Positions 1 to 52,198 of a stretch of DNA of 64,000 bases are shown piece after piece. The notes beneath the pieces are model-generated. The model had not been told where the DNA came from and made no database searches. It worked only from the letters and a program-made list of their open reading frames with translations. How positions within the stretch are numbered: position 1 is the first letter of the stretch; every line of letters begins with the position of its first letter. This DNA comes from Candidatus Bathyarchaeota archaeon (GTDB lineage: Archaea > Thermoproteota > Bathyarchaeia > 40CM-2-53-6): contig CAVPLU010000004.1 in assembly GCA_963706285.1 (NCBI GenBank), positions 224,001 to 288,000 on the forward strand, in the 5' to 3' direction. Made by a program: the position numbers and the translations under genes.

Positions 1-8
1 CGGAATGT

Positions 9-2099
9 ATGTCGACGAGAATACGGCACGAGATAAAGAAGACCATCAGGGGAACGACATACTACTTCTGCAGCGAGAGCTGTCTCAGGCAATTTGAGAA
101 GCCTGAGGTTGAACTGCGCAGACTCAAGACACTTTTCTCGATCGGCGCAATTCTGACAATCCCTACAATGATACTGACCTATGTTCTAGTCTTGCCGCAG
201 GCTCTGAACAACTACTTGCTGCTTCTGCTAAGCGCGCCGGTTCAGTTCGGCGTGGGCTTGCGATTCTACAAAGGGACGTACGATGCATTGAGGAACCGCA
301 TGGGGAACATGGATACGCTCATTGCAATAGGCACAAGCGCGGCTTGGGCCTACAGTTTCATCGTGACTGTGTATCCTTCAGTGTTTCCTTCTAACGCAGT
401 ATATTTTGACACGGCTGCTTTGATCATAACGCTCGTCTTGCTCGGGAATACGCTCGAATACATGAGCAAAGGCAAGGCTTCCGAAGTCAGTCAGGAAGCT
501 CTTGGATCTTCAATCCCGAACCGCACGGATCGTGCGCGACGGCAGGGAGGTCAGACATCCCTGTAGAAGAAGTCCAAGTTGGCGACCTGTTCCTTGTCCG
601 ACCAGGTGAGAGAGTGCCTGTTGATGGGGTGGTCCTCGAAGGCCACACATCGATCGATCAATCGATGATCACTGGAGAGAGCATACCCGTCGAAAAGAAA
701 GCAGGCGACCAGGTGATCGGAGGCACTATCAACAAAACCGGTTTCGTACGAGCCAGAGCAGAGAAAGTCGGAGCAGACACTGTCCTATCGCCAAGATTGT
801 CCAGCTTGTGGAGGAGGCGCAGATGGCGAGAGCACCAATACAGAGACTGGCAGACAGGATATCCGGCTATTTCGTGCCTGCAGTGCTGACGATTGCGAGC
901 ATCTCGGCGTTGATTTGGTATTTCATCGGCCAGATTGGACTGAACTTTGCCTTGCTGGCCTTCGTCTCGGTGGTCATAATTGCTTGTCCCTGTGCCCTCG
1001 GAATTGCGACACCGGCAGCAGTCATGGTTGGAACGGCCAAAGGAGCACAACAAGGGATTCTGATCAAGGGCGGCGAACATCTCGAAGCAGCACAAAAAGT
1101 GGACACTGTAGTATTCGACAAGACCGGGACCTTGACGAAGGGTGAACCCACCGTCACTGACGTCATTACCTTCGGCGGCTTCGCAAAAGACGATCGTGTT
1201 GCGGTATGCAGCGACTGCCGAGAAGAGGTCGGAGCATTCACTTGGAGAGGCAATTCACCGCGAAGCCCGCCGATTGCAGATACAGATTCCTGATCCTGAG
1301 TCCTTCGAAGCAATCCCAGGAATGGGTGTTAGGTGCCACTATGATGGACACGATATCAAGTTCGGAAATCTCACTGCTGATGTCGACCTCAGCTTTCACC
1401 GTACCTAGCGAGGTCGAGAACCAAATCTCCACTCTTGAGAACGAAGGCAAGACCGCAATGATTCTCTCAATCGACAACAACATTGCGGGCTTGATAGGAG
1501 TCGCAGATACCCTCAAAGAGCATTCTGCAGAAGCGATCCGGCAGCTTGAAGCGATGGGTATTCAAGTCGTCATGCTGACTGGGGACAACGAAAGAACGGC
1601 ACGCACAATCGCGAAGAAACTCGGAATTGAACGAGTACTATCGCAGGTGCTTCCTGATCAGAAGGAACGCGTCATCAGAGAGCTCCAACAGGGAGGGGAG
1701 GCGTGTCGCCATGGTCGGGGATGGAGTGAACGACGCTCCTGCACTGGCTGCAGCTGATGTCGGAATCGCCATCGGAAGCGGAACTGATGTCGCGGTTGAG
1801 ACTGGTGGGATAGTCCTGATTCGAGATGATCCGAGAGACGTGGTCACTGCGATCCGAGCTTGAGCAGGCGTACGTTGCAGAAGATCAAACAGAACCTCTT
1901 CTGGGCTTTTGCCTACAACACGATTCTGATACCTGTTGCGGCGGGAGCGCTTGTTCCGTTTCTCGGCGCGGGAATGTACGATTATTTGCCATTCCTTGCA
2001 GCGGGGGCGATGGCGTTTAGCTCAGTAACCGTGGTAGGCAACTCTCTTCTCCTGTCCAGATTCGATCCCACGTCGACTCGTGAAGAGCTCATGAATTGA
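9..2099 (+). CDS. copA: Cu(I)-translocating P1B-type ATPase with N-terminal YHS/TRASH metal-binding domain (split by several frameshifts; 5' end may lie outside the window)
   Basis: [43 protein letters not shown] and AMAFSS motifs spread over consecutive ORF fragments. Confidence 0.92.
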
Positions 2100-2902: not shown

Positions 2903-3707
2903 TCAGAGGCCCCAAGGGTTGGGTTGGGGCACCACGGCCATTATCGTTGAACTAAGCGCGACAACGGATATGACTGTGACGGCAATGAAACCAAGGTCAG
3001 CGTTGTGGAACCTCACATCTCTGAGGAAGGTCTTCTCAGCTCTTGACGAGAACCCGCGCGCCTCCAGGGCAATTGACCTCCTATAGGCTTCCTCTATCGC
3101 TCCCATCAGAAGTGGCGTGACAAGAGGAACGTATGTTTTGAGCCTCCGAACGATCCCGATACCTTCGAGTTGTAGTCCTCTCGACATTTGAGCCTGCTTC
3201 ACAGTTTGTAGTCTTGAGTCTATCGTAGGAACGATCTGGAATGCTGAGAAGAGTGGGTACGCGATTCTAAGTGGCAAGCCGAGCTTCTGCATTGAGGCCA
3301 TGAGATCTCCCGGACGGGTTGTCAGAGTGAGCAAGTATCCTCCACCGAAAATTGCCAAAAGGCGCGTCAGTAGGACAGCCGCAAAAACCAGTCCTTCACG
3401 TTTGAAATAGACCCATGGCAAGATGAAAAGAACGGGAGTCTTCCCAGCCGGATTGAAGAGCCCCTGAATAAGCAAGATCGGAATGAAGACTGGAAGAGAT
3501 ATCCTTCACTAGATTCTTGACGTAAACCGAGGCGACTCTTCCCACGGCAGATAGGATCACAGTGATACAGAACACCGCAAGACAGACAAGGATGCTATTG
3601 GAAACAACAGCCGGCAGCCCAATTGTGATCCACAGCGCAAGCTTGGTTCTGGGATCCAATCGATGGATCGGAGAGGAGCGCTGCACGAAAGTGAGTCGAA
3701 CAGACAA
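2903..3707 (-). CDS. ECF transporter transmembrane T component (frameshifted)
   Basis: SPIHRLDPRTKL N-terminus; AQMSRG and ALEARGF motifs. Confidence 0.88.
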
Positions 3708-3721
3708 TTGTGCTCTGTACT

Positions 3722-4329
3722 CTATGTTAGCGTCGTGTTGTCTTCACGAATTGAACTGGAACTCTCGTGTAGATCAGTCCACGCGATGAAGAACGTTATG
3801 ACCTTGTCCGAAATGTCCGAGATGAATTCTGCCGTCATGGATGCTGGGAAGACTTGCCAACCACCGGCCAAGAAGGCCGCGAAGATCGCGTCTACCCATG
3901 CTTTGCCTGTCGACCCGCCGTAAAGGTACACGTTAAGCGGCGTTGAGGTTAGGGTTGCCACGACTGCAAGAACCACGCTAATCGCGATCGTTCTGCCAAT
4001 CTGTGCTGGAAACTTGTATCTTTCCTGACGAACCCCAGCAACGCACATACGCCAGCTATGAGCCCAACTGCTGCATTGACTATTGCGTAAGGCAAGGCGA
4101 ATGGGTCGAACGTTACCCACTTGAAGACATTCGTGAGAATTCCTACGACTAACCCGTTGATGGGACCGATGATTATTCCCGCCAGCATAGAACCGAGCGT
4201 ATCAACCCAGATTGGCGTGCCCGCAGCTAGGTATGATGACGCGATGTTGATGCCGATCATTAGCGGGATCATGGCGATTCCGAAGGTGGAGAACTCTATC
4301 TTGAGTCTGGACGGTTTTGTTTCTGCCAT
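3722..4329 (-). CDS. ECF transporter substrate-specific S component (frameshifted)
   Basis: Hydrophobic; IWVDTLGSMLAGIIIGP and SDISDK motifs; lies within the A-A'-S-T operon. Confidence 0.8.
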
Positions 4330-4415
4330 CTCCTTCAGCCACGTGCCTAGGGTCCTATCGACTTGGATAATAATACTTACTCGGGACAAGACGCGCTACG
4401 TTGTCGCGAGCATGT

Positions 4416-5252
4416 TTAGCGAGTTAGCTCAACCATCTCCTCAACCGTCATGATGTCACGGCGAATCCCCAGATGTGAGAGGCTGATTGCCAATCGCGTG
4501 ACTTGCGGGGGCCGCACGCCTGACTGTTCAAGCGTTCCTGGATCGGACAGAATCCGTCTAGCTGATTCGTAGGCCGTTATCTCTCCATTGCACATCACAG
4601 CAACTCTCTCGCATTCTCTAGCAACAAATTCCATGTCGTGGGATATGATCACGACAGTCTTCCCGTCACGTTTTAGTTGTTCGAGAATCGAACCGAGTAG
4701 ACGTAACCCTCGGTAATCCTGTCCAGCGTTAGGCTCGTCCATTACCACAATATTCGGATCCATAGCGAGAACTGATGCGAGGCATAGCATCTTCCTTTGG
4801 CCATACGTCATGTTGTATGGGTGTTCCAATATGAAAGGCAACAGGCCAACCATGGACAGCGCGTTGTGTGTCGCACGTTCTATGCTTGCTTCATCCATAC
4901 CGATGTTCTTGGGCCCAAAGGCCACTTCCTCGATGACCGAGGACTCAAACAGCTGATCTTCAGGATTCTGAAAGACGTAACCCACCTCTCGAGCCATCTG
5001 ACTGGCAGACCTCTTCGAAGTGTCTATGCCAACCACGCTCACAGTCCCGGAAGTAGGTTTGAGGAGACTGTTCAAATGCTTTGCAAGCGTTGTCTTGCCA
5101 GCTCCATTCCTTCCTATGAGTGCCACAGTGCTCCCGGCCTCAATCTGGAGGTTCACATTCCTGAGCGCCTCGCGCCCGCTAGAATATTGATAGTGAAGAT
5201 TCTCAACGGAGACAGCCAATGGCACGTTACTCACCACAGAACTGTTTCTCAA
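4416..5252 (-). CDS. ECF transporter ATPase
   Basis: GRNGAGKT, VFQNPEDQL, MDEP, SHD motifs. Confidence 0.92.
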   Translation of the reverse strand: MRNSSVVSNVPLAVSVENLHYQYSSGREALRNVNLQIEAGSTVALIGRNGAGKTTLAKHLNSLLKPTSGTVSVVGIDTSKRSASQMAREVGYVFQNPEDQLFESSVIEEVAFGPKNIGMDEASIERATHNALSMVGLLPFILEHPYNMTYGQRKMLCLASVLAMDPNIVVMDEPNAGQDYRGLRLLGSILEQLKRDGKTVVIISHDMEFVARECERVAVMCNGEITAYESARRILSDPGTLEQSGVRPPQVTRLAISLSHLGIRRDIMTVEEMVELTR

Positions 5253-6090
5253 TCATCTCGGCCGCCTGGGACTCGTCGAGAGGATAGTCACCTCTCCACA
5301 GACCCTTTTCGTCCAACAGACCAGCTACCTGAGCGACTTGGGTATGTCGAACGCCAAGTTTCTCTGCGAACCGAACCTTCCTTGAGAACTCCTGCGGGGA
5401 ATCTAGCGCAACAATCTTGCCGTTGTTGAGGATACAGATCCTACTTGCATATTGAACGAGTGTCTCAGGTTGATTAGAAACCAAGATCGTCGTCATGGCG
5501 TATCTCTCATGAACAGAGTGGACTGCTCTCATGACGGAGACGGCACCCTCTGGATCCAGTAGTTCAGTCGGTTCATCCAAAATCATGATCTGAGGTCGCA
5601 TGGCAATCGCAGTAGCGAGGGAGAGTCTCTGCTGTTCTCCACCGGACAACTCGAAAGGCGCCCTTGTCTCAAATCCCGACAAGCCGACTGCGTCAAGCGC
5701 TTCTGCGATCCTATCCACCATAGCTTCCCTTGGGACTCCTAGGTTCTGAAGTCCAAAAGCCACTTCCTCCTCGACCGTCATGGCTGAACCGGTCATCTGT
5801 GAACGAGGGTCCTGAAACACGATTCCAACGAAACCCGATAGCTCCGACACCTCGCTTTTCCCAGTGTCAAAGCCTTTCACGCTGACAGTCCCTCGCATGG
5901 TTCCTTCGATGACATGTGGGACAAGTCCATTCAGTGAATGACAGAGTGTTGACTTGCCCGCGCCTGAGGGGCCAGTAATCCCGACGAACTCGTTATCCAT
6001 CACTTCTATGGTGATTCCATCCAGTGCCCAATCAACCCGTGAAAGGTAGCGAAAAGCCAGGTCAGAGATTGTGATCGCAGCGGAGGCCAT
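5227..6090 (-). CDS. ECF transporter ATPase
   Basis: GPSGAGKS, FQDP, LSGGEQQR, LDEP; likely start MASAAITI at 6090. Confidence 0.92.
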   Translation of the reverse strand: MASAAITISDLAFRYLSRVDWALDGITIEVMDNEFVGITGPSGAGKSTLCHSLNGLVPHVIEGTMRGTVSVKGFDTGKSEVSELSGFVGIVFQDPRSQMTGSAMTVEEEVAFGLQNLGVPREAMVDRIAEALDAVGLSGFETRAPFELSGGEQQRLSLATAIAMRPQIMILDEPTELLDPEGAVSVMRAVHSVHERYAMTTILVSNQPETLVQYASRICILNNGKIVALDSPQEFSRKVRFAEKLGVRHTQVAQVAGLLDEKGLWRGDYPLDESQAAEMIEKQFCGE

Positions 6091-6253
6091 CAGGCGAGTT
6101 CCCTTATACACTCTAAAATGTCTCTTACATAAAGCGGATTTTGGACTCAGCCTAGTATTGGCAGACATGTCGAATCGGGCGAACCGCACGAGCGGCTCGG
6201 CTAATCGCAAGTTATTAACTTGAGAACTCATTCCAATCACCGAGGCCAAGTTC

Positions 6254-6572: not shown

Positions 6573-6678
6573 TGGAGCCCCGGCCGAGGTTTGAACTCGG
6601 GACCCTTGCCTCTTCAGTCTTCGTTACCAAGGCAATGCTCTCGGCTGCAAAGCATCTACCAGGCTGAGCCACCGGGGC
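6573..6678 (-). tRNA. tRNA-Thr(GGT) with two introns (16 nt at ~22/23, 6640-6655; 13 nt at 37/38, 6612-6624) and encoded CCA
   Basis: Removing both inserts gives a 77-nt cloverleaf GCCCCGG-TG-GCTC-AGCCTGGTA-GAGC-A-TTGCC-TTGGTAA-GGCAA-GGGTC-CCGAG-TTCAAAC-CTCGG-CCGGGGC-T-CCA; TTTATTA box ~26 nt upstream. Confidence 0.93.
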
Positions 6679-6926
6679 TGCGGTTCAGGTCAGGATGATC
6701 TTCTAATAAAGTTTCGATCAGGAGCGAACAGTTCACTTTCGCTGACACATCTATGCTAAGTTGCGGCTCTGAAATGACAAAAACATGATCATGTCCGTCA
6801 TCATCATCTGCCAATTGCTCAAGCAGAGATTTGTCTATTCGCCGCTCGTCAAACGCTTTTACCAAATGTTTAAGACTACTCTGCCATTCACGTTGGTCAA
6901 CGAATCATAAGGAGGAAGAATGAATA

Positions 6927-7781
6927 TTGGTTAAGCGATGTCCAACATGCGGATACAACAACAGAGACGATGCCGTCTTCTGCTCAAGCTGCGGCGGTTC
7001 ACTTGCTGCCGCTGGAGCACCAATGATGAAACCAGTGCCGTCAGTTCGTGTGGTAACTCCGGTCACGTCAGGCGCCCCAATGAGGGTTCCAGCACCAGGA
7101 ATGTGTTTCTACCACCCGAGCCTTCCAGCTGTGTACATATGCAACCGTTGTGGCAGAGCAATCTGCCGTGACGACTCGAAGTCCTACATGGACCTAGTCC
7201 TCTGCCCACAGTGCTACCAAGGAATTGTGCCGCCGATGGCTATGGCTCCCCAAGCACCACAATACGCGCCAGCACCACAATACGCGCCAGCACCACAGTA
7301 TGGACCAGCATACGCACCACCACAATTTGCGCCTGGACCACAATTTGCCGGACCGATGATGGGCCCTATGGGAGCTCCCATGATGGGAGCCGGACCTGCA
7401 AGGTCGCTATGGGCTTTCATACTCGCCTTGGTTTCAGGAATTCTTGTGCTGCTCAACGCGGGACTGCTGCTAGCGTGGCAATTCTACGGCGGAACATTCC
7501 TTTGGGCGAACATATTCTTCTGGATCTGCAACATTGACCGTTCCACAGGATGTCCACTGCCTTCAGGATCTACTGCGACTGGCACGATCACATTCGTGAT
7601 CGGAGCAATCATAGGCCTAATCATAATCGTCGGATCGATTATGATGATCCTAGGATACGGCACAATCGGCAGCCTCATCATTTTCCCGCTAGCCGTCTTC
7701 AGCCTGATCATAGGCGGCGGCTTCATCGCAGGCTTCGTACTAGGCATCATCGCCGGTATCATGGGCATGTTAGGGCGATAG
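6927..7781 (+). CDS. Zinc-ribbon + B-box-like zinc finger + Pro/Tyr-rich linker + C-terminal multi-TM protein
   Basis: CPTCG-x-CSSCG; C-x2-H-x8-C-x2-C-x4-C-x2-D-x9-C-x2-C; APQYAP repeats; at least 3 hydrophobic helices; GGAGG SD upstream. Confidence 0.8.
   Translation: MVKRCPTCGYNNRDDAVFCSSCGGSLAAAGAPMMKPVPSVRVVTPVTSGAPMRVPAPGMCFYHPSLPAVYICNRCGRAICRDDSKSYMDLVLCPQCYQGIVPPMAMAPQAPQYAPAPQYAPAPQYGPAYAPPQFAPGPQFAGPMMGPMGAPMMGAGPARSLWAFILALVSGILVLLNAGLLLAWQFYGGTFLWANIFFWICNIDRSTGCPLPSGSTATGTITFVIGAIIGLIIIVGSIMMILGYGTIGSLIIFPLAVFSLIIGGGFIAGFVLGIIAGIMGMLGR
7254..7307 (+). repeat. In-frame 18-bp tandem repeat (APQYAP x3)
   Basis: gcaccacaatacgcgcca twice exactly, third copy gcaccacagtatggacca. Confidence 0.9.
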
Positions 7782-7797
7782 TCCTTAAATCCCCCCA

Positions 7798-7809
7798 GTT
7801 TTTTTCTTT
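7798..7809 (+). terminator. Archaeal oligo-T terminator candidate
   Basis: GTTTTTTTCTTT ~17 nt after the stop codon at 7781. Confidence 0.5.
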
Positions 7810-7823
7810 AACTTAGTATCCGT

Positions 7824-9478
7824 TTGGTCGTGTGTTCCGTGTCGTATGTGGCGATCTCCGGCCAAGTAGCCGAGAAGTTGGTTAGGGAGGCGAGAGATCA
7901 TCCAGAAGAGCAGGTCGTCGGTGTGTTGCTCGGCGGACAGTTCGGCAGCACCATTTCCATTGAAGATGCAGCGACAGGACCTGCCAACGCGGACGCCACA
8001 AAGGCAACGCTGACCGGGGATTCGATCGCAAGAATAGCGGATGACATAATCAATAAGAGAATAAGAGGAAGTATCGTTGGTTGGTATCATTCTCATGTTC
8101 GCGGTGGCGTCTTCATGTCCGAGACGGACGTGGAAACGCAGCTCAAACTTCAACAGTTTTCTCCTCTGGTGACAGCAATGGTGATTGACACGCAAACAGG
8201 AACATCAGGATTCTTCAGGGCTGACCCGAAGACGCGAGAGGCGGTGTCTGTGCCTTCGCAGAACGCAAGGGCCGAAGTTCATCGCCCGGATCCGCATCCT
8301 ACTATGCGCCTGAGCGAGCGACGTACCCGCAATATCCGACGCCCATGACCCAGGGCCCGTCAACTCGTACACTGTTGCTGGCACTTCTGATTATCACATT
8401 GGCCGTAACAGGAGGCATCCTGGCGCTGGTATACTACCGCAACCCAACAGTCTCCGGTGGCAGTGGTAATCTCGCGATAACTCATGCTCCACCTAGCGGG
8501 CCATTCACGATCGGGAGCCCTATAACGATCGATGCAAACGTCACCGGCTCTAAACCTACTGAACGTCACGTTGGCCTACAAGATAATCGAAGCAGCTCCC
8601 AACTCCCAGGGCGGATTGATCATTGGAAACTTGGTTCAAGTGCCCATGCTTCCGAGATCCGCAGGAGTGCACGAACCACCTGCACGTATTCGTACACTTT
8701 GCCGTCGTCTGAAATATCCGGAGTCTATGTTCAGTACTACATTTCCGCCTTCGACACTGCTTCCCCGCCTAATATTGTTCGCACTGATATCTACACTCTC
8801 AATGTGGGAGATTTCAGTTGGCGTGATGACACGACCGAGGTAGTTGCCATTCGACAAGCCCAGGCTGGCATATCACTTCCCTTGGATTCGATTAATGGCT
8901 TCAGTGACCTCATCACCATCAGAATCCTCACTCAACCGCCGCTAGGAGTTCGAATAGTTCCTATCAGCACGCAAGTTCGTCCTCCAAACGCCGCCAACCT
9001 AATAATAACCAGCACTGAAAACGCGCAGATCAGTTACAAGTACCCGATTCAAGTCGATGCCGTGTATACTGTACGCAACGTGCAGGTAATACGCTCCACA
9101 ATACTGCAGCTCACGTTGACTGACATCGACATCGCTGTCTCGCCAACCTACGCGAAGACCCAGCAATGTTATGCCTCCGATAGCTGCCTTGACTCGAATG
9201 AGTTCGCACAGTACACTGTGACGCTTACGATCTACGACGGATTTACCGCCCCGAACGGTATCCAACTGTTCCCAAGTGGTCTTCCGGATCATACTCGCTA
9301 CGAGATTCTGTTGGTCAGTCAGAAGATTGGCACGGACGAAACGCAGACATTAACTTACTCTCTCATAGTTCGCGCTGATACAGATTCCACTGTGAACAGG
9401 TACCTCTTTTCAATGATAGTCAGGGCCGGAAGTATCACACACAGTGTGGACAACATACAGTTTGAGATCGTGGACTGA
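7824..9478 (+). CDS. JAMM/MPN+ (Rpn11-like) isopeptidase probably fused to a single TM helix and extracellular beta-sandwich domains (frameshifts near 8270 and 8550-8670)
   Basis: VVGVLLG...VGWYHSHVRGGVFMSETD JAMM motif; the frame of the 8345 ORF stays open upstream as SASYYAPERATYPQYPTP, linking to TM LLLALLIITLAVTGGILALVYY; repaired ectodomain reads NVTLAYK...VPM...YSYTLP...VQYYISAFD. Confidence 0.78.
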
Positions 9479-9519
9479 TTGACGCAGACTTGATCGCTTG
9501 CTGGAGGTGAAAGAAGCAC

Positions 9520-9771
9520 TTGAAACTCTTCGTTCAGGCACCTATTGGGCCGCAGACAGGGCTGGCTGAGATTGATGTTATACCGGATCATACAGTCGGA
9601 GAGATCAAGCAGCAGGTATGCACCTCGTTCGGAGTTGACCCTGCTACGGTCGCGTTGATGTACGGCGGCATCATACTTGACGAGTCCAGCACAGTCAGCA
9701 GAGCCGGGATCCCTGAGAATGCCCAACTCGCACTGATGCCCTACAATATCATCGGTGGCAACGGAAGGTGA
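9520..9771 (+). CDS. Ubiquitin-like modifier (eukaryote-type beta-grasp) with C-terminal GG-NGR pro-extension
   Basis: MKLFVQ...IDVIPDHTVGEIKQQV...GVDP....LMYGGIILDESSTV...GI....L...GG follows the ubiquitin pattern; GGAGGTGA SD. Confidence 0.9.
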   Translation: MKLFVQAPIGPQTGLAEIDVIPDHTVGEIKQQVCTSFGVDPATVALMYGGIILDESSTVSRAGIPENAQLALMPYNIIGGNGR

Positions 9772-10361
9772 ACCTTCCGCTTCTCTACAAGGAGAAGAAT
9801 TTCACAAACCACCAATTCCCAACGGTAATGGCTCTCAATGATCCGCCCACGGCATACGAGGGTATGCTCAGGTGCGAGAAGGGAGAAGTGAAGACTCTCG
9901 CCGAGAAGAAGATCTGGCCCTTCACCGAGTATGCGGACTGGAACAGGTTCAGGCTAGAACTTCCGGACGAGTACCCCGTGAAGCCTCCCAAAGCGATTTG
10001 GCTCTCCGACATCTCCCACCCAAACATAGTCCCCAAGGTCATGAATGCCGTCTGCGTCTCTATCATCGGCGAGAACTGGCGTCCCGACCTGAAGCTTGTC
10101 TCTGTAGTGAACGCTCTTTACTACCTCCTGTCTGATCCAAACCCTGACAACGTATTCGACCACCCCGATTGCCTCAAGGCTGCAAACGTCTGCAGATCAT
10201 ACGGATTTCCAAAAATGACAAAGCGAAAGACCGCGACACAGCAGGGCGATCTTGTTCGATTCAACATCGTTCCTGTACCTCAAACGCGGCCAAGAGAGCC
10301 TGCACCGACGGGAGATGTGATACGATTTCGAATCCTTGACAGGGAGCGAAAGGAACATTAG
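9768..10361 (+). CDS. E2 ubiquitin-conjugating enzyme (UBC fold) with C-terminal tail
   Basis: FRLELPDEYPVKPPK, HPNI...VCVSII..NWRP...L..V...LLSDPNPD; overlaps the Ub stop (GTGA). Confidence 0.93.
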   Translation: MNLPLLYKEKNFTNHQFPTVMALNDPPTAYEGMLRCEKGEVKTLAEKKIWPFTEYADWNRFRLELPDEYPVKPPKAIWLSDISHPNIVPKVMNAVCVSIIGENWRPDLKLVSVVNALYYLLSDPNPDNVFDHPDCLKAANVCRSYGFPKMTKRKTATQQGDLVRFNIVPVPQTRPREPAPTGDVIRFRILDRERKEH

Positions 10362-11618
10362 TTGAAAGTAAAGCTCTCGATGCCGTCTGTTCGAGACATA
10401 GAACTTGACGTTCCTTCAACAGCAACGATCAGTCACCTAAAGGAAAAGGCATGCAAGAAGTTAGGAATCGAGTCTGACCTGACAAGCATCCTATGTGATG
10501 GTGCTCGGATTGATGGGAAGCGAAGCGTCGGCAGCCTCCATCTCAAGCAGAAGCTCCTGACAGTCGACTATCTCTGGGCTCGTCATCTAATACTTTGGGG
10601 GCCGGATGGGCAGAAACGACTGAGAGGTGCAACTGTACTTGTCGCTGGTGCGGGAGCGATTGGTAATGAGGTTGCGAAGAACCTTGCAATGCTCGGCGTC
10701 AAGCGCCTACTGATCATCGATAACGATACCGTCGAACTTTCGAACACGAGCCGAATGATCTTCTTCGATCGCAAGAGCCTGGGCTTGAACAAGGCGGAAA
10801 TGCTCGCCAGAGGAATCACCCAGAAGTTCCCCTATGTTGAGGCAATTGCATGGACCGGTGCACTCGAAGACCTCCCACTCGAACACATCCTAAGTGCCGA
10901 CGTGATCGTGTGCGGTCTAGACAACGTACTCTCCAGGATATACCTAGCACAAGTTTCCAGAAGGTACTCCATACCAATGGTAGACGGAGGCATCGTTGGG
11001 TATCGCGGACGTGTCCAAGTCTACGTTCCCCCAGACACGCCATGCCCGCTGTGCACATACCCATCCTCCGAATACGGCCGCATTGCAGGGCTCAGGAACC
11101 CCTGCGATGGGCCAGCTGAAGAAACGAAGGTCCCATCTCTTCCGACGACGATCTCGTTGGTTTCTTCGATCCAATGCCAAGAGGCGACCAAACTGATCGT
11201 TGGTTACCAAAGCTACTTGAGAACTGCGATTTGGCCGAAAGAGACCGGAGAACCGCTCAGGGGCGTGCTGATGATCGACTTGCAGTACAATCGTTACAGC
11301 CTGATGGAGATCAAGCGGAATAAGAGCTGCGTTGTGTGCGGGGAAAACGGGCTGGCCGAGAAGCCTGTGCCAGTGCTGACGATCCCGATAGGAGAAATTC
11401 GCGACTCAACCTCCAGACTGCATCAGATGGTTGCTAGCAGAATGAAACTGACAGCACAGCAAGTTATGTTGTTCTTGCAGCGTCAGAACAAGACAGTGCG
11501 AGTCGAGAAAGGGCAGTCTCTTCGGCGGGCACGCATCGGTGTGGGGAGCGTCATCACCGCGGTCGCACAAGATGGACCCGACTACAGTGAAGCTGTGGTC
11601 AGGCTCACAAAGCCCTAA
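10362..11618 (+). CDS. E1 ubiquitin-activating enzyme (ThiF/Uba) with N-terminal Ubl domain and C-terminal ubiquitin-fold-like domain
   Basis: VLVAGAGAIGNEVAKNL, DNDTVELSNTSR, LDN..SR, CPLC...NPC (candidate catalytic Cys)...CVVC. Confidence 0.92.
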   Translation: MKVKLSMPSVRDIELDVPSTATISHLKEKACKKLGIESDLTSILCDGARIDGKRSVGSLHLKQKLLTVDYLWARHLILWGPDGQKRLRGATVLVAGAGAIGNEVAKNLAMLGVKRLLIIDNDTVELSNTSRMIFFDRKSLGLNKAEMLARGITQKFPYVEAIAWTGALEDLPLEHILSADVIVCGLDNVLSRIYLAQVSRRYSIPMVDGGIVGYRGRVQVYVPPDTPCPLCTYPSSEYGRIAGLRNPCDGPAEETKVPSLPTTISLVSSIQCQEATKLIVGYQSYLRTAIWPKETGEPLRGVLMIDLQYNRYSLMEIKRNKSCVVCGENGLAEKPVPVLTIPIGEIRDSTSRLHQMVASRMKLTAQQVMLFLQRQNKTVRVEKGQSLRRARIGVGSVITAVAQDGPDYSEAVVRLTKP

Positions 11619-11728: not shown

Positions 11729-12109
11729 ATGCGACAGTGTTTATCCTGTGGAAGTAGAAACTCCGATGACGCAGCCTTCTGTAGCATGTGTGGGCTCTCC
11801 TTTGCTGGAAGCCAACCGCAGCAGTATATGCAACCAGTCGGAGCGGCGATGAAACCCGTTCCAATTGTGAAAACGATCACCCCATTGGCGCAGGCAGGCC
11901 CGCAGCAGTGGCCAGTTCCAATGGCTCGGCCGCAGATGACGATCGGATCCTGCTCTTTTCACCCTGAGCTTCCGGCATCGTACATTTGCCTTCGATGCGG
12001 CAAGCAGATATGCTTCTCCTGCACGAAAACCTACGGTCAGCTGGCGATATGCCCTGAGTGCTACTGGGCACTTGCACCACGTACAGGCACAGCGCAGCCG
12101 GGACGCTGA
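11729..12109 (+). CDS. Soluble zinc-ribbon + B-box-like protein, paralog of 6927..7781
   Basis: CLSCG...CSMCG; MKPVP; C-x2-H-x8-C-x2-C-x4-C-x2-C-x9-C-x2-C. Confidence 0.82.
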   Translation: MRQCLSCGSRNSDDAAFCSMCGLSFAGSQPQQYMQPVGAAMKPVPIVKTITPLAQAGPQQWPVPMARPQMTIGSCSFHPELPASYICLRCGKQICFSCTKTYGQLAICPECYWALAPRTGTAQPGR

Positions 12110-12120
12110 AACGATCTTTC

Positions 12121-13727
12121 CTACGCGAGGAGCCCTTTCCTCTTCAGTCGCTCCGTGGATAGCTTGACCTCATTCACGGACAACCCAAGATCCTTCGAAG
12201 CTTGGCTAAGTGATATCTCACCATTTCGTTTCGCGATATATTGGTAGACTCGGTTATCCAGCTCCTCAAAGCCAACGGCGGCTGATGCCTGACCTCGCTT
12301 CCGGGCTCCAGCAACCGCGGTCCTGCGTCGTCTGACACCGGAGCTAAGCGATGAGCCCAGCCTTGCAAAAGATCTCGGGCGCTTCGCAATTATGAATATG
12401 ACAGCAGTGACGATTGTTGCTGCAGCGCCCAAAGAGACAATGAAGATCCACAAGGGTGCATAGTCTGTGACCCACTGTGCCTCTACTATGTAGGGTCGAT
12501 CCATCGTGACCTCATTTTCACCCGGTGGGACAGCGCTAATCACGTTCGAGGAATTGAGGCGCCAGCCAGCGAGCGTATGTTTCACTAATAGTTCTGACCC
12601 GCTGTAAGTCACATCAAACCTTGCTTTTTCCCCATCAAGATACCAGCCAGTACCTGTCGGTTCCCCAAATGAGGACGTTACCAGAAGGTAGTACTGTGTT
12701 TGATAGATCAACCGTACGTTGTGCGGTTTGTTCATCACAAGCTCCGCCGATGTTCCTGGCTGAGTCATGCCATCGATATTCCATGAAAGCCAGACAAATC
12801 GTTGAACCGAGCTTCCCGGGATTGAGATTATTTGAGGAACAGGTCCAAGAGAAGCAGTCTGGCCAGCATCGTACCAGGTGCTGTTAGGGGCTGAGATTTT
12901 CTGAGCAATGTCTGGTGGATCGTAAGTGACGTCCAATTTGTATTGTGTCTTGTATCTTGCAGTCACTGACTTGGGTCCATCCATGCGAGCAGACCCGTGG
13001 GAATCGGTACCTGTGTAGTCTCCTACCCATTGAACAAAGACCTGTCGAGTATCGGTTCCATTTGTTCCTTTAGGTGCAAGGAAATCTGCCGTAGATCCAG
13101 CGTCGAGCCAGAGAGTTGAGGGCGAGAAAAGTCCGACCGGATCATACGATATTCGAAGGATATACTGTGTCTTCCAGGTGGCAACGGCTTTCTTCGGACC
13201 ATTCATGACTATCGAGTCGGAGATTATTCCCTGCCCCGAGGCATCCTGTCCCCACTTGACAAACAGATATCTCACTCCTTCGGATCCGCTTGTCATGTTC
13301 GTGTCCAACCTGGCTTGAGCAGTTGTTCCCCCGTCGTACCAATCACTTCTAGACGGCGCTCCGTACTGAGAGACGACTTCGAGGTAGTATTGTGCCTTGT
13401 AGGTGAATGTGTGGGTGCCAGCTCCCGTGAAGGACCAGAGGTTGTCTCTGCATTGATACCTGGTTCCGTTGGCCCCGCCCACGTTTAGGTCGACGCTGAG
13501 CGTGTGCGCACCGCCAGGAGAGATGCTTAGGGTCTTCGTGTCGCCTGTTGCAATCGTTCCGTTTAGTATGCCGTCCAGGTAATATTGAGTTCTTGCTCCG
13601 CTGGAAGCCCTACCACTGTGAAGGAGACGGAGTACGCTTGAGCCTTCACGAGTGTCGGTGCGGTGACGAGAGAAATGAGGATCAGTGCGTCAAGTGCCAA
13701 GATGGCCAATCTAGTCCTCGACAACAT
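12121..13727 (-). CDS. Type I membrane protein: signal peptide, repeated beta domains, TM helix, cytoplasmic C-terminal winged helix (frameshifted near the N-terminus)
   Basis: ATG at 13727 with hydrophobic leader; repeats QY(Y/I/K)L.V.S...G...WY..G; TM LWIFIVSLGAAATIVTAVIFII; tail RVYQYIAKRNGEISLSQASKDLGLSVNEVKLSTERLKRKGLL. Confidence 0.75.
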
Positions 13728-14254: not shown

Positions 14255-15099
14255 TCACATATGAACGTCCAAGCAGACCTGGTAGCGACAAGGGCCAACA
14301 CTTCTGACCACATGTGATTCTATGTTGCCCTCCCCTGCACCTATCTGTCTGAAACACAGGACTCAACTTCGACAAAGCCTGCATGCTTGCCGCTGATCTA
14401 CGATTTGAGTCGATGAACACATAGCAGTGGACTACCCCGCAACCATTCTTCAATGCACTTTTCGCGGTCGGAAGAGACTGCAATGCCAATTCAGGCAACG
14501 GCAGCAGGACTCGATCAGCGCATCCGTTGAGAGAAAGAGGACACTAGCTGGTTCGCGTCTCCGCAGATCACATCTATTCTATCTCGTACTCGGTTGAGCA
14601 CGTTGTTCATGGCATGATAGCGAACGGCCGCTGGGTTGATGTCGAGGGAATAGACTCTTGAGGGGTGTGAGTGCTTCGCGATCATTATTGAGAAAGATCC
14701 CACTCCAGCGAAGAAATTTACAACACATTCTCCCTGAGAAACCAGGTCAGCAATTCGCTTTCGTTCATGACTGAGCCTCGGTGAGAAATACATCGTCTCT
14801 AGATCGACTCGGTATTGGCAGCCATGCTCGCGGTGTAGAGTCTCGGTCCGTTGCTCACCCGCCAACCATTCAAGCTTCCGGGTTCGAAACTGCGAACTAA
14901 CCGGACCCGTCTGTCCCAAGACGACTCTGAGGTTAGGTGCGAGATCAAGTAGGCTCTCCGCAATTTGGTGCTTTTCATGCTGAAATTCGTCGGGAAGCTT
15001 CAGGATCGCTATGTCTCCAACTATGTCAACACCTTTCTTGAGACGAGAAAGCTGTCCCATGTCAAGGAATTTCTTTGTAGATTTCGTGAGTAGCCTCAA
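14255..15099 (-). CDS. Trm5/Taw2 (Met-10+) family SAM-dependent tRNA G37 modification enzyme (frameshifted)
   Basis: DIVGDIAI, HREHGC...YFSPRLSHER, FAGVGSF, DINP motifs; adjacent to taw1. Confidence 0.85.
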
Positions 15100-15135
15100 T
15101 GTCGAACGCCACCGATCACCATTGAGGCTTCAGTC

Positions 15136-49229: not shown

Positions 49230-49312
49230 AGTTCAACCTAGAACAGATGGGATTCTAACGCAAGATATTAGTCTGATTCCGAGGGAACGTCCATAGACAC
49301 GACTGATGACTG

Positions 49313-50704
49313 ATGAGCCAACCGCATCCTTTCATGCCCACCAGTGCTCGTAGAATCAAGGAGGAGATGCTACATGAGCTGGGAGTTCGCAATGTGGAGG
49401 TCCTCTTCGACGACATTCCCGAATCAATTAGGAAAGACTCTACTCTGAACCTGCCTTCGCATCGATCCGAGATGGAAGCCAGGCTAACGGTGGAGGGTCT
49501 GCTGTCGAAGAACCTCTCGACGAGGGAGGTTGTATCTTTCCTAGGGGGAGGAGTCTGGCCTCACTACGTTCCGGCTGCCGTGGACGAAATAGTTTCCCGG
49601 TCTGAATTCCTTACGTCCTACACTCCCTACCAACCGGAGATCTCGCAAGGTATCCTCCAAGCTCTGTTCGAATACCAAAGCATGATCGCGGAGCTGATGG
49701 GGATGGAGTATGCAAACAGCTCACTCTACGACTGGGCAACGGCCCTAGGAGAAGCTGCGAGAATGGCATCTCGCGTAACGGGTCGAGATGAATTCGTCAT
49801 TCCTCACTACGTCCAGCCTGAGAGGATCCAGACTCTGAAGACATTTTGCGAGCCTGCCAGGATACATGTAGTCGAAGTTGATCAGGATAGGCAAACCGGA
49901 GCAATCCTAGACAGCGACCTTCAGAAGAAGGTCGGCTCGAAGACTGCTGGCGTGTACGTTGAGAACCCATCGTACCTCGGCTTCTTTGAAGCCGGAGCGA
50001 AACGAATCGGAGAAATAGCGCACCAGAAAGGGGCCTTGTTCGTTGTCGGTGCCGATCCGATCTCGCTTGGATTGTTCGCGTCGCCCGGCGAGTTGGGCGC
50101 AGATATTGCCATTGGAGAAGGTCAGCCGCTTGGAAATCACATGAACTATGGCGGCCCTCTGCTCGGACTTTTCGCATGCAAGGATGAACGCTTGCTAAGG
50201 CAGATGCCCGGACGCCTGATTGGTGAGACGATAACCAAAGATGGCAGCTCGAAGGCTTTCACGATGGCACTTCAGACAAGAGAACAGCACATCCGGCGTG
50301 AGAGGGCCACCTCGAACATCTGCACGAATGAGGCACTCTGTGCATTGGCCGCTGCAGCATATCTTTCGCTGCTCGGCCCGAGCGGACTTGAGAGACTAGG
50401 CAAGATCATCCTAGACAACTCACACTACGCTATGCAACAACTGAAGGAACTGAAGGGTCTCAAGGTGCCGCTCTTTGAAGCACAACACTTCAAAGAATTC
50501 GTTGTTAGTTTCGAGGGCACAGGCCTTGCAGTCTCAAAAGTCAACGAGGAACTCGCCCGACGAGGCATTCAAGGGGGCATTTGCTTGCCCACTCAATTCC
50601 CCGAGCTCGGCCAATCCGCGCTCTACTGTGTGACCGAATGTCACACGCGCGAGAACATCGACCGACTCAGGACAACGATCGGAGCAATCTTGGAGGAGAG
50701 ATGA
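49313..50704 (+). CDS. gcvPA: Glycine dehydrogenase subunit 1
   Basis: YTPYQPEISQG.LQ.LFEYQ, QTREQHIRRERATSNICTN. Confidence 0.96.
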   Translation: MSQPHPFMPTSARRIKEEMLHELGVRNVEVLFDDIPESIRKDSTLNLPSHRSEMEARLTVEGLLSKNLSTREVVSFLGGGVWPHYVPAAVDEIVSRSEFLTSYTPYQPEISQGILQALFEYQSMIAELMGMEYANSSLYDWATALGEAARMASRVTGRDEFVIPHYVQPERIQTLKTFCEPARIHVVEVDQDRQTGAILDSDLQKKVGSKTAGVYVENPSYLGFFEAGAKRIGEIAHQKGALFVVGADPISLGLFASPGELGADIAIGEGQPLGNHMNYGGPLLGLFACKDERLLRQMPGRLIGETITKDGSSKAFTMALQTREQHIRRERATSNICTNEALCALAAAAYLSLLGPSGLERLGKIILDNSHYAMQQLKELKGLKVPLFEAQHFKEFVVSFEGTGLAVSKVNEELARRGIQGGICLPTQFPELGQSALYCVTECHTRENIDRLRTTIGAILEER

Positions 50705-52198
50705 TGACATTCAAACAGGCTCAATGGAATGAACCTCTCATCATCGAAAGATCTAGGGAAGGAATTGTGGGATTCTCTCTCCCAACCTGTGAAGAACTCG
50801 CCGTTCATGTTCCCGTCGAGCTCCTCCGCAAGAAACGTCCTAAGCTTCCAGAGGTGGCTGAGACTGATGTCATCCGTCACTATGTTCGATTGTCGCAAAT
50901 GAACTACGGTGTAGACCTTGGGATCTACCCGCTCGGGAGTTGCACGATGAAGTACAACCCGAAGGTGCTCGACAAGCTCGCAGCAAGCACAAAGATCCAG
51001 GACCTACATCCTTTGCAGGATGCTGCAACAGTGCAGGGCATTCTGAGAATACTTCACGAACTTTCTGAATGGCTTGCCGAAATAGTTGGGTTGCACAAAG
51101 TCTCCCTGCAGCCAGCCGCAGGCGCACACGGCGGAATTTGCTGGTGCAATGATCATCAGAGCCTTTCATAGACAAAACGGAGATCTGGAGAAGAGAGACG
51201 AGGTCATCGTTCCCGACTCGGCACATGGAACGAATCCGGCGAGCGCGACAATGGCGGGCTTCAAGGTTGTGGAGGTGCCTTCCAATCGGGATGGATGTGT
51301 GGATATCGATGCCCTTCGTGCCTCGCTCTCTGACAGAACGGCCGGCTTGATGCTCACGAACCCGAACACACTCGGAATATTCGAATCGGAGATCCTCGAG
51401 ATCGCCAGACTCGTCCACGAGGCCGGTGGTCTGCTCTATTATGATGGTGCAAACCTAAACGCGATGCTCGGAAAGGCCAAACCTGGACGAATGGGCTTTG
51501 ACATTGTACACATCAACATCCACAAGACGTTCGGCACTCCTCACGGGGGCGGAGGGCCTGGTTCAGGCCCGATTGCAGTCACCAAGGAGCTTGATGGATT
51601 CCTCCCCGTTCCCACCGTAGAGCAAGATCGTGACAGGTACTACTTGGACTTCAATCGGCCTAAGAGTATTGGAAAGATTCGAAGTTTCTGGGGAAACTCA
51701 TCAGTGCTGCTTCGTGCCTATGCGTACATCTTGATGATGGGACGCGAGGGACTTGAGGAAGTTGCTGAAGTCTCTGTTCTCAACGCAAACTACTTGGCAA
51801 AGAAATTGAGCCAAGTGCGTGGGTACGAATTGCCGTTCCCACACAGAGTCAGGAAACACGAGTTCGTTCTCAGCGCTGCCAAAATGACACATGAGACGGG
51901 CGTCACCGCTGCGCACCTCTCGAAGAGACTGCTTGATTTCGGAATTCACGCCCCCACAATCTACTTCCCACTGATTGTTGATGAAGCTATGATGATTGAA
52001 CCGACTGAAACGGTGAGCAAACAGGAACTGGACGGATTCATCACGGCCTTCTCGAAGGCAAGCGATGAAGCGTACACGAATCCCGATCTTGTGAAAGACT
52101 CTCCGAAGAACACGGCCGTTACCAGGATCGATGAAGTGAGAGCCTCCCATCCCAAGACCATGCAGCTGACATGGAAGCAGAAAGCGCAAACGATCTGA
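50701..52198 (+). CDS. gcvPB: Glycine dehydrogenase subunit 2 (frameshift near 51130)
   Basis: YPLGSCTMKYNP, SAHGTNPAS, YYDGANLN, HKTFGTPHGGGGPG. Confidence 0.95.

Follow-up and report, generated by a model that had tools for sequence, protein, structure and literature searches.

Positions 7824-9478 of a 64,000-nucleotide stretch of Candidatus Bathyarchaeota DNA (the window; part of contig CAVPLU010000004.1, referred to as C4) are listed as two overlapping open reading frames (ORFs) on the + strand, 7824-8348 with 174 amino acids and 8345-9478 with 377. These are the parts of a single gene, a conclusion we hold with high confidence. The product is a protein of about 550 amino acids in which an MPN/JAMM domain of the Rpn11 type is followed by a linker, one transmembrane (TM) helix and three beta-sandwich domains, and the gene stands in an operon with pro-ubiquitin and with enzymes of the E2 and E1 types. 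The MPN domain carries Gln where the catalytic Glu is expected. A single gene broken by indels, encoding a membrane-anchored MPN-Ig-like protein that likely does not cut, is the explanation we favour as a whole, with moderate confidence; the functional picture drawn from it is offered tentatively.

The gene and its frame breaks

An earlier reading, made from the letters and their ORFs (the sequence-only reading), held that the second ORF's frame continues open in the 5' direction and carries Pro/Tyr linker text, that the tail of the JAMM ORF is off-frame, and that one indel joins the two ORFs. The first two statements were borne out. The 8345 frame has no stop codon back to 8225, the upstream in-frame TGA being at 8222-8224, and its extension reads ...SSPGSASYYAPERATYPQYPTPMTQGPS; the conserved linker motif sits in this frame, 5' of the 8345 ATG. 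In the ORF 7824-8348 the Pfam match to PF01398 covers residues 6-114 only, and the tail past about residue 152, its last ~22 residues, is without counterpart in homologs. The Met codon at 8345 is replaced by Val in the intact copy described below (L002) and in the homolog P0003; the apparent start is thus not a conserved one. The third statement stood in part: a base is indeed missing between the two frames, and three further insertions in the second ORF had been overlooked.

The same bin holds the intact reference copy on its contig C20 (552 amino acids, L002:1486-3144, contained in a 556-amino acid open frame). Between the second and the fourth break the conserved NLLNVTLAYKIIEAAPNSQGGLIIGNLVQVPMLPRSAG is readable in the frame of 7824, as is the conserved text NLLNVTLAYKIIEAAPNSQGG... 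of 8552-8673; the listed 8345 ORF gives junk, KPTERHVGLQDNRSSSQLPGRIDHWKLGSSAHASEIRRSAR, across this out-of-frame part of the first beta-sandwich domain (D1). A search with the 377-amino acid ORF returned 57 homologs, and 42 of them are proteins of 528-561 amino acids with PF01398, ie the full-length fused relatives that the sequence-only reading had proposed to look for. The best, P0001, has 550 amino acids and is 87% identical to the query, and P0003 is 78% identical; both are fused, like the C20 copy. Fused open frames of 544-561 amino acids were found in 7/7 further genomes of the genus with an ectodomain match.

Contigs of four public sequencing runs (X1-X4) were also compared; they come from relatives 88-99% alike, whose status as the same strain is not established. 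A C is inserted behind 8278 in one contig each of X1 and X2, and one base fewer is present at 8552 in one contig each of the same two runs; X3 and X4 have depth at 8552 but no contig carrying that change. Single-base deletions at 8666 and at 8673 were each seen in one X1 contig. In some runs parts of the stretch are uncovered, which carries no information. Every public-run contig listed with a change at a break site has the intact form.

The four single-base indels are quite probably assembly (long-read consensus) errors rather than real mutations. With the frame restored, the ratio of nonsynonymous to synonymous substitution rates (dN/dS) against the C20 copy is 0.12 overall. By part it is 0.046 for the MPN domain, 0.107 for D1, 0.279 for D2 and 0.132 for D3, and the TM helix has no amino-acid change at all. 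For the two stretches shifted in the window the values are 0.16 and 0.076, the latter for 8552-8673, and neither has accumulated stop codons. Error is favoured by these low values and by breaks across unrelated genes of C4. Among the C20 stop-to-stop frames of at least 200 amino acids that match C4, 5 of 13 are divided over two or three C4 frames, whereas only 1/12 C4 frames is split on C20, a contig with far fewer broken frames. A gene at window 3-1757, which we take from recognised motifs to be a heavy-metal P-type ATPase, is found on the + strand in at least four overlapping pieces (3-566, 614-889, 808-1293 and 1206-1757), and its counterpart on C20 is a single 712-amino acid frame. Two membrane components, 2903-3707 (-) and 3722-4389 (-), whose motifs presumably mark the region 2903-4389 as ECF-transporter-like, are each in two overlapping ORFs, for which indels are the more likely cause. 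The earlier remark that indels are pervasive in this contig is therefore correct.

The window copy could instead be a real, recent pseudogene with four true indels, the intact C20 copy doing the work. The bin has two copies, four indels within 400 bases of one gene form a dense cluster, and there are no same-strain reads to test them: no same-strain run was found among the public runs, of which the best shares 0.29 of sampled words, so the contigs come from relatives and do not settle error versus mutation directly. We nevertheless regard a pseudogene as unlikely. The low restored-frame dN/dS and the want of stop codons speak against it, and damage to unrelated C4 genes points to sequence quality, not to targeted decay. 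The 32.8-kb contig C20 runs collinear with part of C4 (within 220728-241413) for some 17 kb at 93.6-95% identity, with 92.6% over the stretch aligned at window 6600-9660. That collinearity and the 7.47% contamination of the bin (G000; 21 contigs, 89.2% complete) agree better with the presence of another strain than with a paralogous segment.

Two real, translationally coupled genes, one for a small soluble JAMM and one for a distinct protein with TM helix and ectodomain, could be argued from the ATGA overlap at 8345-8348 and from natural MPN-less TM-ectodomain proteins elsewhere (L028, 378 amino acids; L073, 389 amino acids; P0058, P0060 and P0062), but this is close to refuted by the fused nearest relatives, by the linker motif and the Val codon noted above, by the unmatched end of the JAMM ORF, and by the three D1 frame breaks that a separate second ORF would still hold.

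Protein architecture and the catalytic position

The coordinates of the gene's features and of its neighbours are given in Table 1. The intact C20 protein is likewise above the curated PF01398 cut-off, with 47.0 bits. In a sequence search of the PDB the closest solved relatives of the MPN domain were CSN5 and CsRpn11 (6fjv, 2.7e-12), the latter being the Rpn11-like JAMM of the Caldiarchaeum subterraneum ubiquitin operon, PDB 6FJU/6FJV (Fuchs et al. 2018, PMC6043591; Hennell James et al. 2017, PMC5654768; available parts of both texts). AlphaFold2 (AF2) was run on a 44-row alignment, with the ectodomain alone and with the full-length protein. In the full-length model the MPN domain extends to about residue 147, followed by a low-confidence linker and a helix at 181-204. 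The intact protein has one hydrophobic stretch, residues 181-205, where 19-residue Kyte-Doolittle windows reach 2.72, and shows no signal peptide at its N-terminus. The ectodomain model (alignment A1) is all-beta with a mean predicted local distance difference test score (pLDDT) of 89.7. Judged by the strand pattern and the matched ranges, three sandwiches would occupy ectodomain residues ~10-125, 126-230 and 231-347. The structure and topology prediction therefore agrees with the sequence-only reading in its main lines, a cytoplasmic JAMM, one TM helix and a beta ectodomain, here of ~347 amino acids with three sandwiches and with a disordered linker before the helix. Its description of the ectodomain as S/T-rich did not hold by any measure applied.

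The likely topology is N-in, C-out, because the MPN domain, which has no signal peptide, has to reach ubiquitin in the cytoplasm and because the N-V-T sequon of D1 suits an exposed archaeal glycoprotein; the invariance of that sequon would fit an extracellular glycosylated domain.

The ectodomain matched no Pfam family. Foldseek gave generic Ig-like, E-set and PapD-like matches with E values of 1e-9 to 1e-7 and TM-scores of 0.2-0.45, and VIA-align gave single-domain Z scores of 9-11.7 with root-mean-square deviations of 2.2-3.0 over 85-100 residues. None of these matches stands out. The fold resembles that of tandem Ig-like receptors (titin-like, DIP/Dpr, KIT D1-3, NCAM) and of prokaryotic E-set/PapD-like surface domains, from which the ectodomain differs in its sequence (5-24% identity), in the lack of a Pfam family and in its small number of representatives: at E up to 0.001, 38 of 1.84 billion cluster representatives match, so the family is small and lineage-specific. 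In the ESM Atlas the first matches to the ectodomain were at 0.82, under the meaningful level. A marginal capsid match from the PDB sequence search (0.0055) was dismissed.

JAMM proteases use Zn2+ plus a Glu to polarise the attacking water (Fuchs et al. 2018, PMC6043591, available text). In the HMMER alignments Gln30 of the window protein falls opposite the Glu of CsRpn11 and of CSN5, without nearby gaps. The CSN5 residue is Glu76, its catalytic Glu. Throughout alignment A2 (44/44 sequences) Q30 is invariant and so are the zinc-site residues H89, H91, S99 and D102; some of the 44 have Q or K in place of the acidic neighbour, residue 29. The MPN domain thus has the PF01398 fold and the H-x-H-x7-S-x2-D motif of the MPN+ group and is without the upstream catalytic Glu. 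As this Glu is a defining mark of the active MPN+ enzymes, Gln30 lowers the deubiquitinase reading without proving inactivity. From the residue pattern, we consider that the fused MPN domain of the window's genus (g1) is rather more probably dead or strongly impaired in catalysis than fully active. Of the earlier label, receptor-like deubiquitinase, the first half is supported by the architecture; the second is not shown, Gln standing in place of the catalytic Glu in every sequence of the group although the zinc motif is retained.

The residue at this position varies among the fused proteins. It is Gln also in families f7 and f10, Arg in f9, in L030 (f5) and in L029 (f2), Lys in two proteins of f2, and Glu in g4 (the sister genus, of family f1), in f6 and in f3. 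In the tree the g1 proteins (Gln) are sister to those of g4 (Glu) with support 88. Gln needs three changes on that tree, of which the well-supported branches force only one, the backbone being unresolved.

Table 1. Features of the fused gene and of the ubiquitin operon in the window (positions are window coordinates).
Feature	Position	Strand	Basis or remark
Membrane Zn-ribbon and B-box-like Zn finger, Pro/Gln/Tyr-rich repeat linker, C-terminal multi-TM	6927-7781	+	First operon gene
MPN/JAMM (Rpn11-like) domain, residues 1-147	7824-8264	+	PF01398 9.4e-14, 51.7 bits against a cut-off of 22.5
Gln30, codon CAG, at the catalytic Glu position	7911-7913	+	HMMER alignments to CsRpn11 and CSN5
HSHVRGGVFMSETD, the HxHx7SxxD zinc-site motif, kept	8088-8129	+	Alignment A2
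Disordered Pro/Tyr-rich linker, predicted cytoplasmic	8265-8362	+	pLDDT <50 for residues 149-185, full model
Frame break 1	8278/8279	+	One base missing relative to all intact relatives; lies between the MPN and the linker/TM frames
Conserved Y-P-Q-x-P motif in the linker	8324-8338	+	Y168 invariant; Q170 and P172 at least 90% conserved
Single TM helix, residues 181-204	8363-8434	+	Kyte-Doolittle; AF2 helix 181-204
Ectodomain, ~347 amino acids, three beta-sandwich domains	8438-9475	+	AF2; stop codon 9476-9478
Predicted domain D1	8465-8809	+	AF2 strand pattern
Predicted domain D2	8810-9124	+	AF2 strand pattern
Predicted domain D3	9125-9475	+	AF2 strand pattern
Frame break 2	8552	+	One extra base relative to L002 and contigs of relatives
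Out-of-frame stretch of D1	8552-8673	+	About 40 codons; holds the conserved N-V-T sequon
N-V-T sequon in D1	8562-8570, frame of 7824	+	N247 and T249 invariant (44 sequences)
Frame break 3	about 8664-8666	+	One extra base (about 8664 relative to L002; 8666 relative to the X1 contig)
Frame break 4	about 8673	+	One extra base (8673 relative to the X1 contig; net frame change at 8674-8679 relative to L002)
Pro-ubiquitin, ending ...IIGGNGR (three residues past Gly-Gly)	9520-9771	+	PF00240 8.5e-10
E2-like ubiquitin-conjugating enzyme (UBC-type)	9768-10361	+	PF00179 1e-15
E1-like enzyme (ThiF-type) with N-terminal ubiquitin-like domain	10362-11618	+	PF00899 9.6e-48; PF00240 2.1e-6, residues 5-64
Soluble Zn-ribbon/B-box-like paralog	11729-12109	+	Zn_Ribbon_1 9.7e-7; zf-B_box 4.1e-4, under cut-off

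The operon, the stand-alone paralog and their distribution

The operon is conserved in one order of Bathyarchaeia, with the gene order Zn-finger membrane protein, fused gene, pro-ubiquitin, E2, E1 and soluble Zn-finger protein. It recurs in 7/8 genome_contigs loci, all from Bathyarchaeia/Bathyarchaeota, and in L014-L024 and L029-L031. Three marks of the operons of the Caldiarchaeum and Asgard type are present, namely a ubiquitin fold with Gly-Gly and an extension, an E2 of the UBC type and an E1 of the ThiF type. Pro-ubiquitin is 92-98% identical in the Bathyarchaeia loci L005-L010 and 85% identical in L011. One difference concerns the E1, in which the ubiquitin-like domain is N-terminal (10362-10560); the Caldiarchaeum E1 has a C-terminal UBL domain according to a figure legend (PMC5654768, available text).

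The membrane Zn-finger gene is conserved directly 5' of the fused gene in related loci, and the soluble paralog is kept 3' of the E1. The membrane protein matches Zn_Ribbon_1 (1.1e-6), with zf-B_box (0.006) and Prok-RING_1 (0.0019) both under cut-off; no RING family in Pfam reached threshold for either protein, a RING-type E3 (srfp) being a further mark of the Caldiarchaeum/Asgard operons. Both are candidate E3-like proteins. The copy number of the APQY/APQF repeats of the membrane protein differs between C4 and C20 at window 7290-7318, with in-frame gaps of 12, 6 and 3 bases. With the PADLOC models of anti-phage Ubl/E1/E2/JAB systems (Bil, CBASS-associated) the E1 matches generic E1-E2 models (best 1.1e-16) over its adenylation core only, and a JAB match was at 5.8e-4; PADLOC returned nothing for ubiquitin, E2 or the Zn proteins, and NCBIfam nothing specific to defence.

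A second Rpn11-like protein, a stand-alone JAMM of 147 amino acids, is encoded on contig C10 of the same bin (L004). Its residues E27, H86, H88, S96 and D99 are invariant in 21/21 stand-alone orthologs, and its best solved relatives are yeast Rpn11 (4ocl, 2.4e-12) and CsRpn11 (2.5e-12). Used as the query against 105 genomes of the order it matched 69, and the E2 matched 66; the JAMM query also matches fused MPN domains, so that a few of the 69 are fused-only. By genus, the JAMM and E2 matches are 9/9 and 9/9 in g1 and 22/23 and 21/23 in g4, and both are absent from g2 (0/22), g3 (0/3) and g15 (0/7). Of the 22 matching g4 genomes, 21 have, by row reading, a separate stand-alone copy. The stand-alone proteins form one clade of the tree, with a support of 99 in the Shimodaira-Hasegawa-like approximate likelihood ratio test (SH-aLRT); 12 of their rows carry no residue label there, and all have Glu in the ortholog alignment. 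A restriction of the stand-alone JAMM to lineages with a Glu-less fused MPN domain was considered and ruled out, as g4 keeps the Glu in its fused proteins and 22/23 of its genomes match. A complex prediction for the fused MPN domain (A2, 1-147) with the stand-alone JAMM (A3) gave 0.01 against a mark of 0.32, a score from a run with no folded controls that has no bearing on binding. Family f4 has a third Rpn11-like kind, encoded outside the operon (L051:3304-4311 and L052:2907-3818, both +), with a basic, probably coiled-coil N-terminal half of ~170 amino acids and a C-terminal JAMM with Glu.

The ectodomain was found in 45 of the 401 genomes sampled from the class, all in one order, by a single-sequence search to which diverged members are invisible. 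This query matched 0/4 genomes of f3, yet frames of 511-512 amino acids with a JAMM match are present there, which may or may not have a homologous ectodomain and a place in the operon. Elsewhere the slot of the fused gene holds a protein without MPN domain. In G122 (f5; L028) it is a protein of 378 amino acids, with a short tail, a TM helix and the ectodomain, and the only JAMM of that genome is the stand-alone one. In f4 (L073) it is a protein of 389 amino acids with a Pro/Tyr-rich tail, a TM helix and the ectodomain, homologous to the TM-ectodomain part of the fused protein (hhalign probability 99.7%, E 1.2e-25). P0058, P0060 and P0062 are MPN-less representatives too. The TM-ectodomain protein is thus the constant element, and the MPN domain an optional N-terminal addition. 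Ectodomain paralogs are also found outside the operon (L025-L027).

Several other features of the window may be recorded here. Convergent with the end of the operon is a gene for a large beta-rich protein (12121-13482, -; stop-to-stop 12124-13689) with a TM helix near its C-terminus, past which the winged-helix families HTH_24 (0.009) and TrmB (0.012) match weakly, each under its cut-off. L073 has a 652-amino acid frame with similar C-terminal text at the same place. The window protein may act as a membrane-bound regulator connected with the operon. A tRNA scan of the window found none. Two ABC ATPase genes, 4416-5252 and 5227-6249, adjoin the ECF-like ORFs. Window 14258-15129 (-) has three C4 frames, as against one frame of 291 amino acids on C20. 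Glycine-cleavage P-protein genes lie at 49310-52195 (+); subunit 1 is whole (PF02347 6.6e-109), and the subunit 2 frame matches its profile from mid-domain on, the overlapping preceding frame matching nothing, which possibly reflects an indel. A Pfam scan of 10 later window frames gave partial-profile matches (molybdopterin oxidoreductase, GcvP subunit 2, radical SAM) that are suggestive of breaks only.

Proposed role and relation to known systems

We propose that the fused protein holds an MPN module that recognises ubiquitin on the cytoplasmic side of the membrane, where it would be positioned beside the membrane-embedded E3-like Zn-finger protein, and that the ubiquitin system would thereby act at the membrane or the cell surface. 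The Gln30 MPN domain of the genus would be a ubiquitin-binding or scaffolding pseudo-protease, or a weak protease, and not the main deubiquitinase; a pseudo-protease is the more likely because the zinc site is kept and Gln stands for the catalytic Glu. Pro-ubiquitin maturation would fall to the stand-alone Rpn11-like JAMM with its full motif. The loss of catalysis, this division of labour and any role of the ectodomain are suggested by comparison of residues and gene content.

The strongest competitor is an active receptor-like deubiquitinase, in which ligand binding or clustering of the ectodomain would tune the action of the JAMM domain on pro-ubiquitin or on membrane targets. It applies chiefly to the lineages that retain the Glu (fused proteins of g4, f3 and f6). 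The single-pass receptor architecture agrees with it, as do the invariant zinc motif and the low dN/dS of the MPN domain; moreover the C-terminal extension of ubiquitin needs a protease, and the fused gene is the operon's only JAMM. In the group of the window, however, the Glu is replaced throughout, in f2, f5 and f9 Arg or Lys takes its place, and the MPN-less proteins in the slot in f4 and G122 indicate that processing there is independent of a fused MPN domain. An active enzyme is accordingly doubtful, though less so than a pseudogene.

Several observations weigh against the favoured explanation of an indel-broken gene for a membrane-anchored, likely non-cutting protein. Of the 57 homologs, 15 have 259-463 amino acids and no Pfam domain; they are on contigs of at most 6134 bases, and some may be natural MPN-less forms like P0058, P0060 and P0062. 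With no reads of the same strain, room is left for real mutations in it. The invariant zinc ligands and Ser, and the MPN dN/dS of 0.046, would also fit an enzyme with another general base, and the ancestor of the fused proteins probably worked as a deubiquitinase, because g4, f3 and f6 retain the Glu. The stand-alone JAMM is encoded outside the operon among unrelated neighbours, and its co-occurrence with the E2 was counted over non-independent kin, so that it is a pattern and not a test. The fold matches of the ectodomain are generic only and the ligand cannot be named from them. Finally, there is one Arg on each side of the TM helix, and the topology rests on hydropathy and logic.

Of the systems already described, that of CsRpn11 is the nearest. 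The two share the HxHx7SxxD zinc site, CsRpn11 is the best solved relative of the MPN domain, and both are archaeal genes adjoining an extended pro-ubiquitin, E2 and E1. CsRpn11 is a soluble protein of 202 amino acids with C-terminal helices H4/H5 and the catalytic Glu, which cleaves pro-ubiquitin and conjugates (PMC6043591, PMC5654768, available text) with a kcat of about 4 per min (PMC6043591, available text). Here, the MPN core leads instead into a disordered linker, with a TM helix and a 347-amino acid ectodomain after it, and Glu is replaced by Gln. The word "transmembrane" does not occur in the available text of PMC6043591 and PMC5654768. The available full-text literature, including these two papers and PMC11188069, yielded no account of an archaeal ubiquitin operon with a membrane-anchored MPN protein; supplementary tables (Fuchs et al., ESCRT preprint) might list such proteins. 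The label given to these proteins by the JGI pipeline is 'proteasome lid subunit RPN8/RPN11'. What appears to be new is a ubiquitin operon of the Caldiarchaeum type in which the Rpn11-like part spans the membrane, bears an ectodomain and, in this case, has its catalytic Glu substituted.

Two Rpn11-like paralogs beside a ubiquitin system recall the eukaryotic MPN+/MPN- pairs Rpn11-Rpn8, CSN5-CSN6 and BRCC36-Abraxas. As in those pairs, one member, the stand-alone protein, has the full motif (Glu in 21/21), and the other, the fused protein, has lost the Glu in several lineages. In eukaryotic MPN- subunits the zinc ligands are usually lost as well. The fused MPN domain differs from them in its intact zinc site, and the paralog pair is known here from co-occurrence, not as a heterodimer. 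A JAMM-family domain at the membrane in a ubiquitin pathway is also a feature of AMSH/AMSH-LP and of Sst2, to which there is a weak match (0.003). These are JAMM deubiquitinases of endosomal membranes whose targets are ubiquitylated receptors. AMSH is a peripheral protein, recruited via ESCRT partners and not integral to the membrane; it has no ectodomain and keeps the catalytic Glu. The fused protein, in contrast, is integral to the membrane, has an ectodomain and has Gln for Glu.

For annotation, the many single-base indels of this contig mean that split gene calls in it are not to be trusted at face value; the split described here is most likely an artefact, and the underlying protein family is unusual. 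The eukaryote-like ubiquitin operons of archaea have so far been studied through their soluble parts, in Caldiarchaeum and Asgard, and their substrates and cellular role are unknown. The Bathyarchaeia version is bound to the membrane twice, by an embedded protein, putatively E3-like, and by an integral Rpn11-like protein with a large ectodomain, and the substrates to look for are membrane or surface proteins. The MPN domain, the stand-alone JAMM, pro-ubiquitin, the E1 and the E2 are tractable constructs. Loss of the Glu with retention of the zinc site, beside a complete paralog, amounts to a natural experiment on the origin of inactive MPN subunits of the Rpn8 and CSN6 type. More speculatively, and at present improbably, one order of Bathyarchaeia may have a cell-surface ubiquitin system whose core is a single-pass protein with a Pro/Tyr-rich cytoplasmic tail and three Ig-like domains that would be ubiquitylated by the E1 and E2 of the operon and the membrane-embedded E3-like Zn-finger protein, or would read ubiquitin for them, the MPN domain having been captured in most lineages, its Glu lost repeatedly and a soluble MPN+ paralog kept. 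If true, this would be an archaeal forerunner, outside the Asgard lineage, of receptor ubiquitylation and of the division of labour between MPN+ and MPN- proteins of the Rpn11/Rpn8 type.

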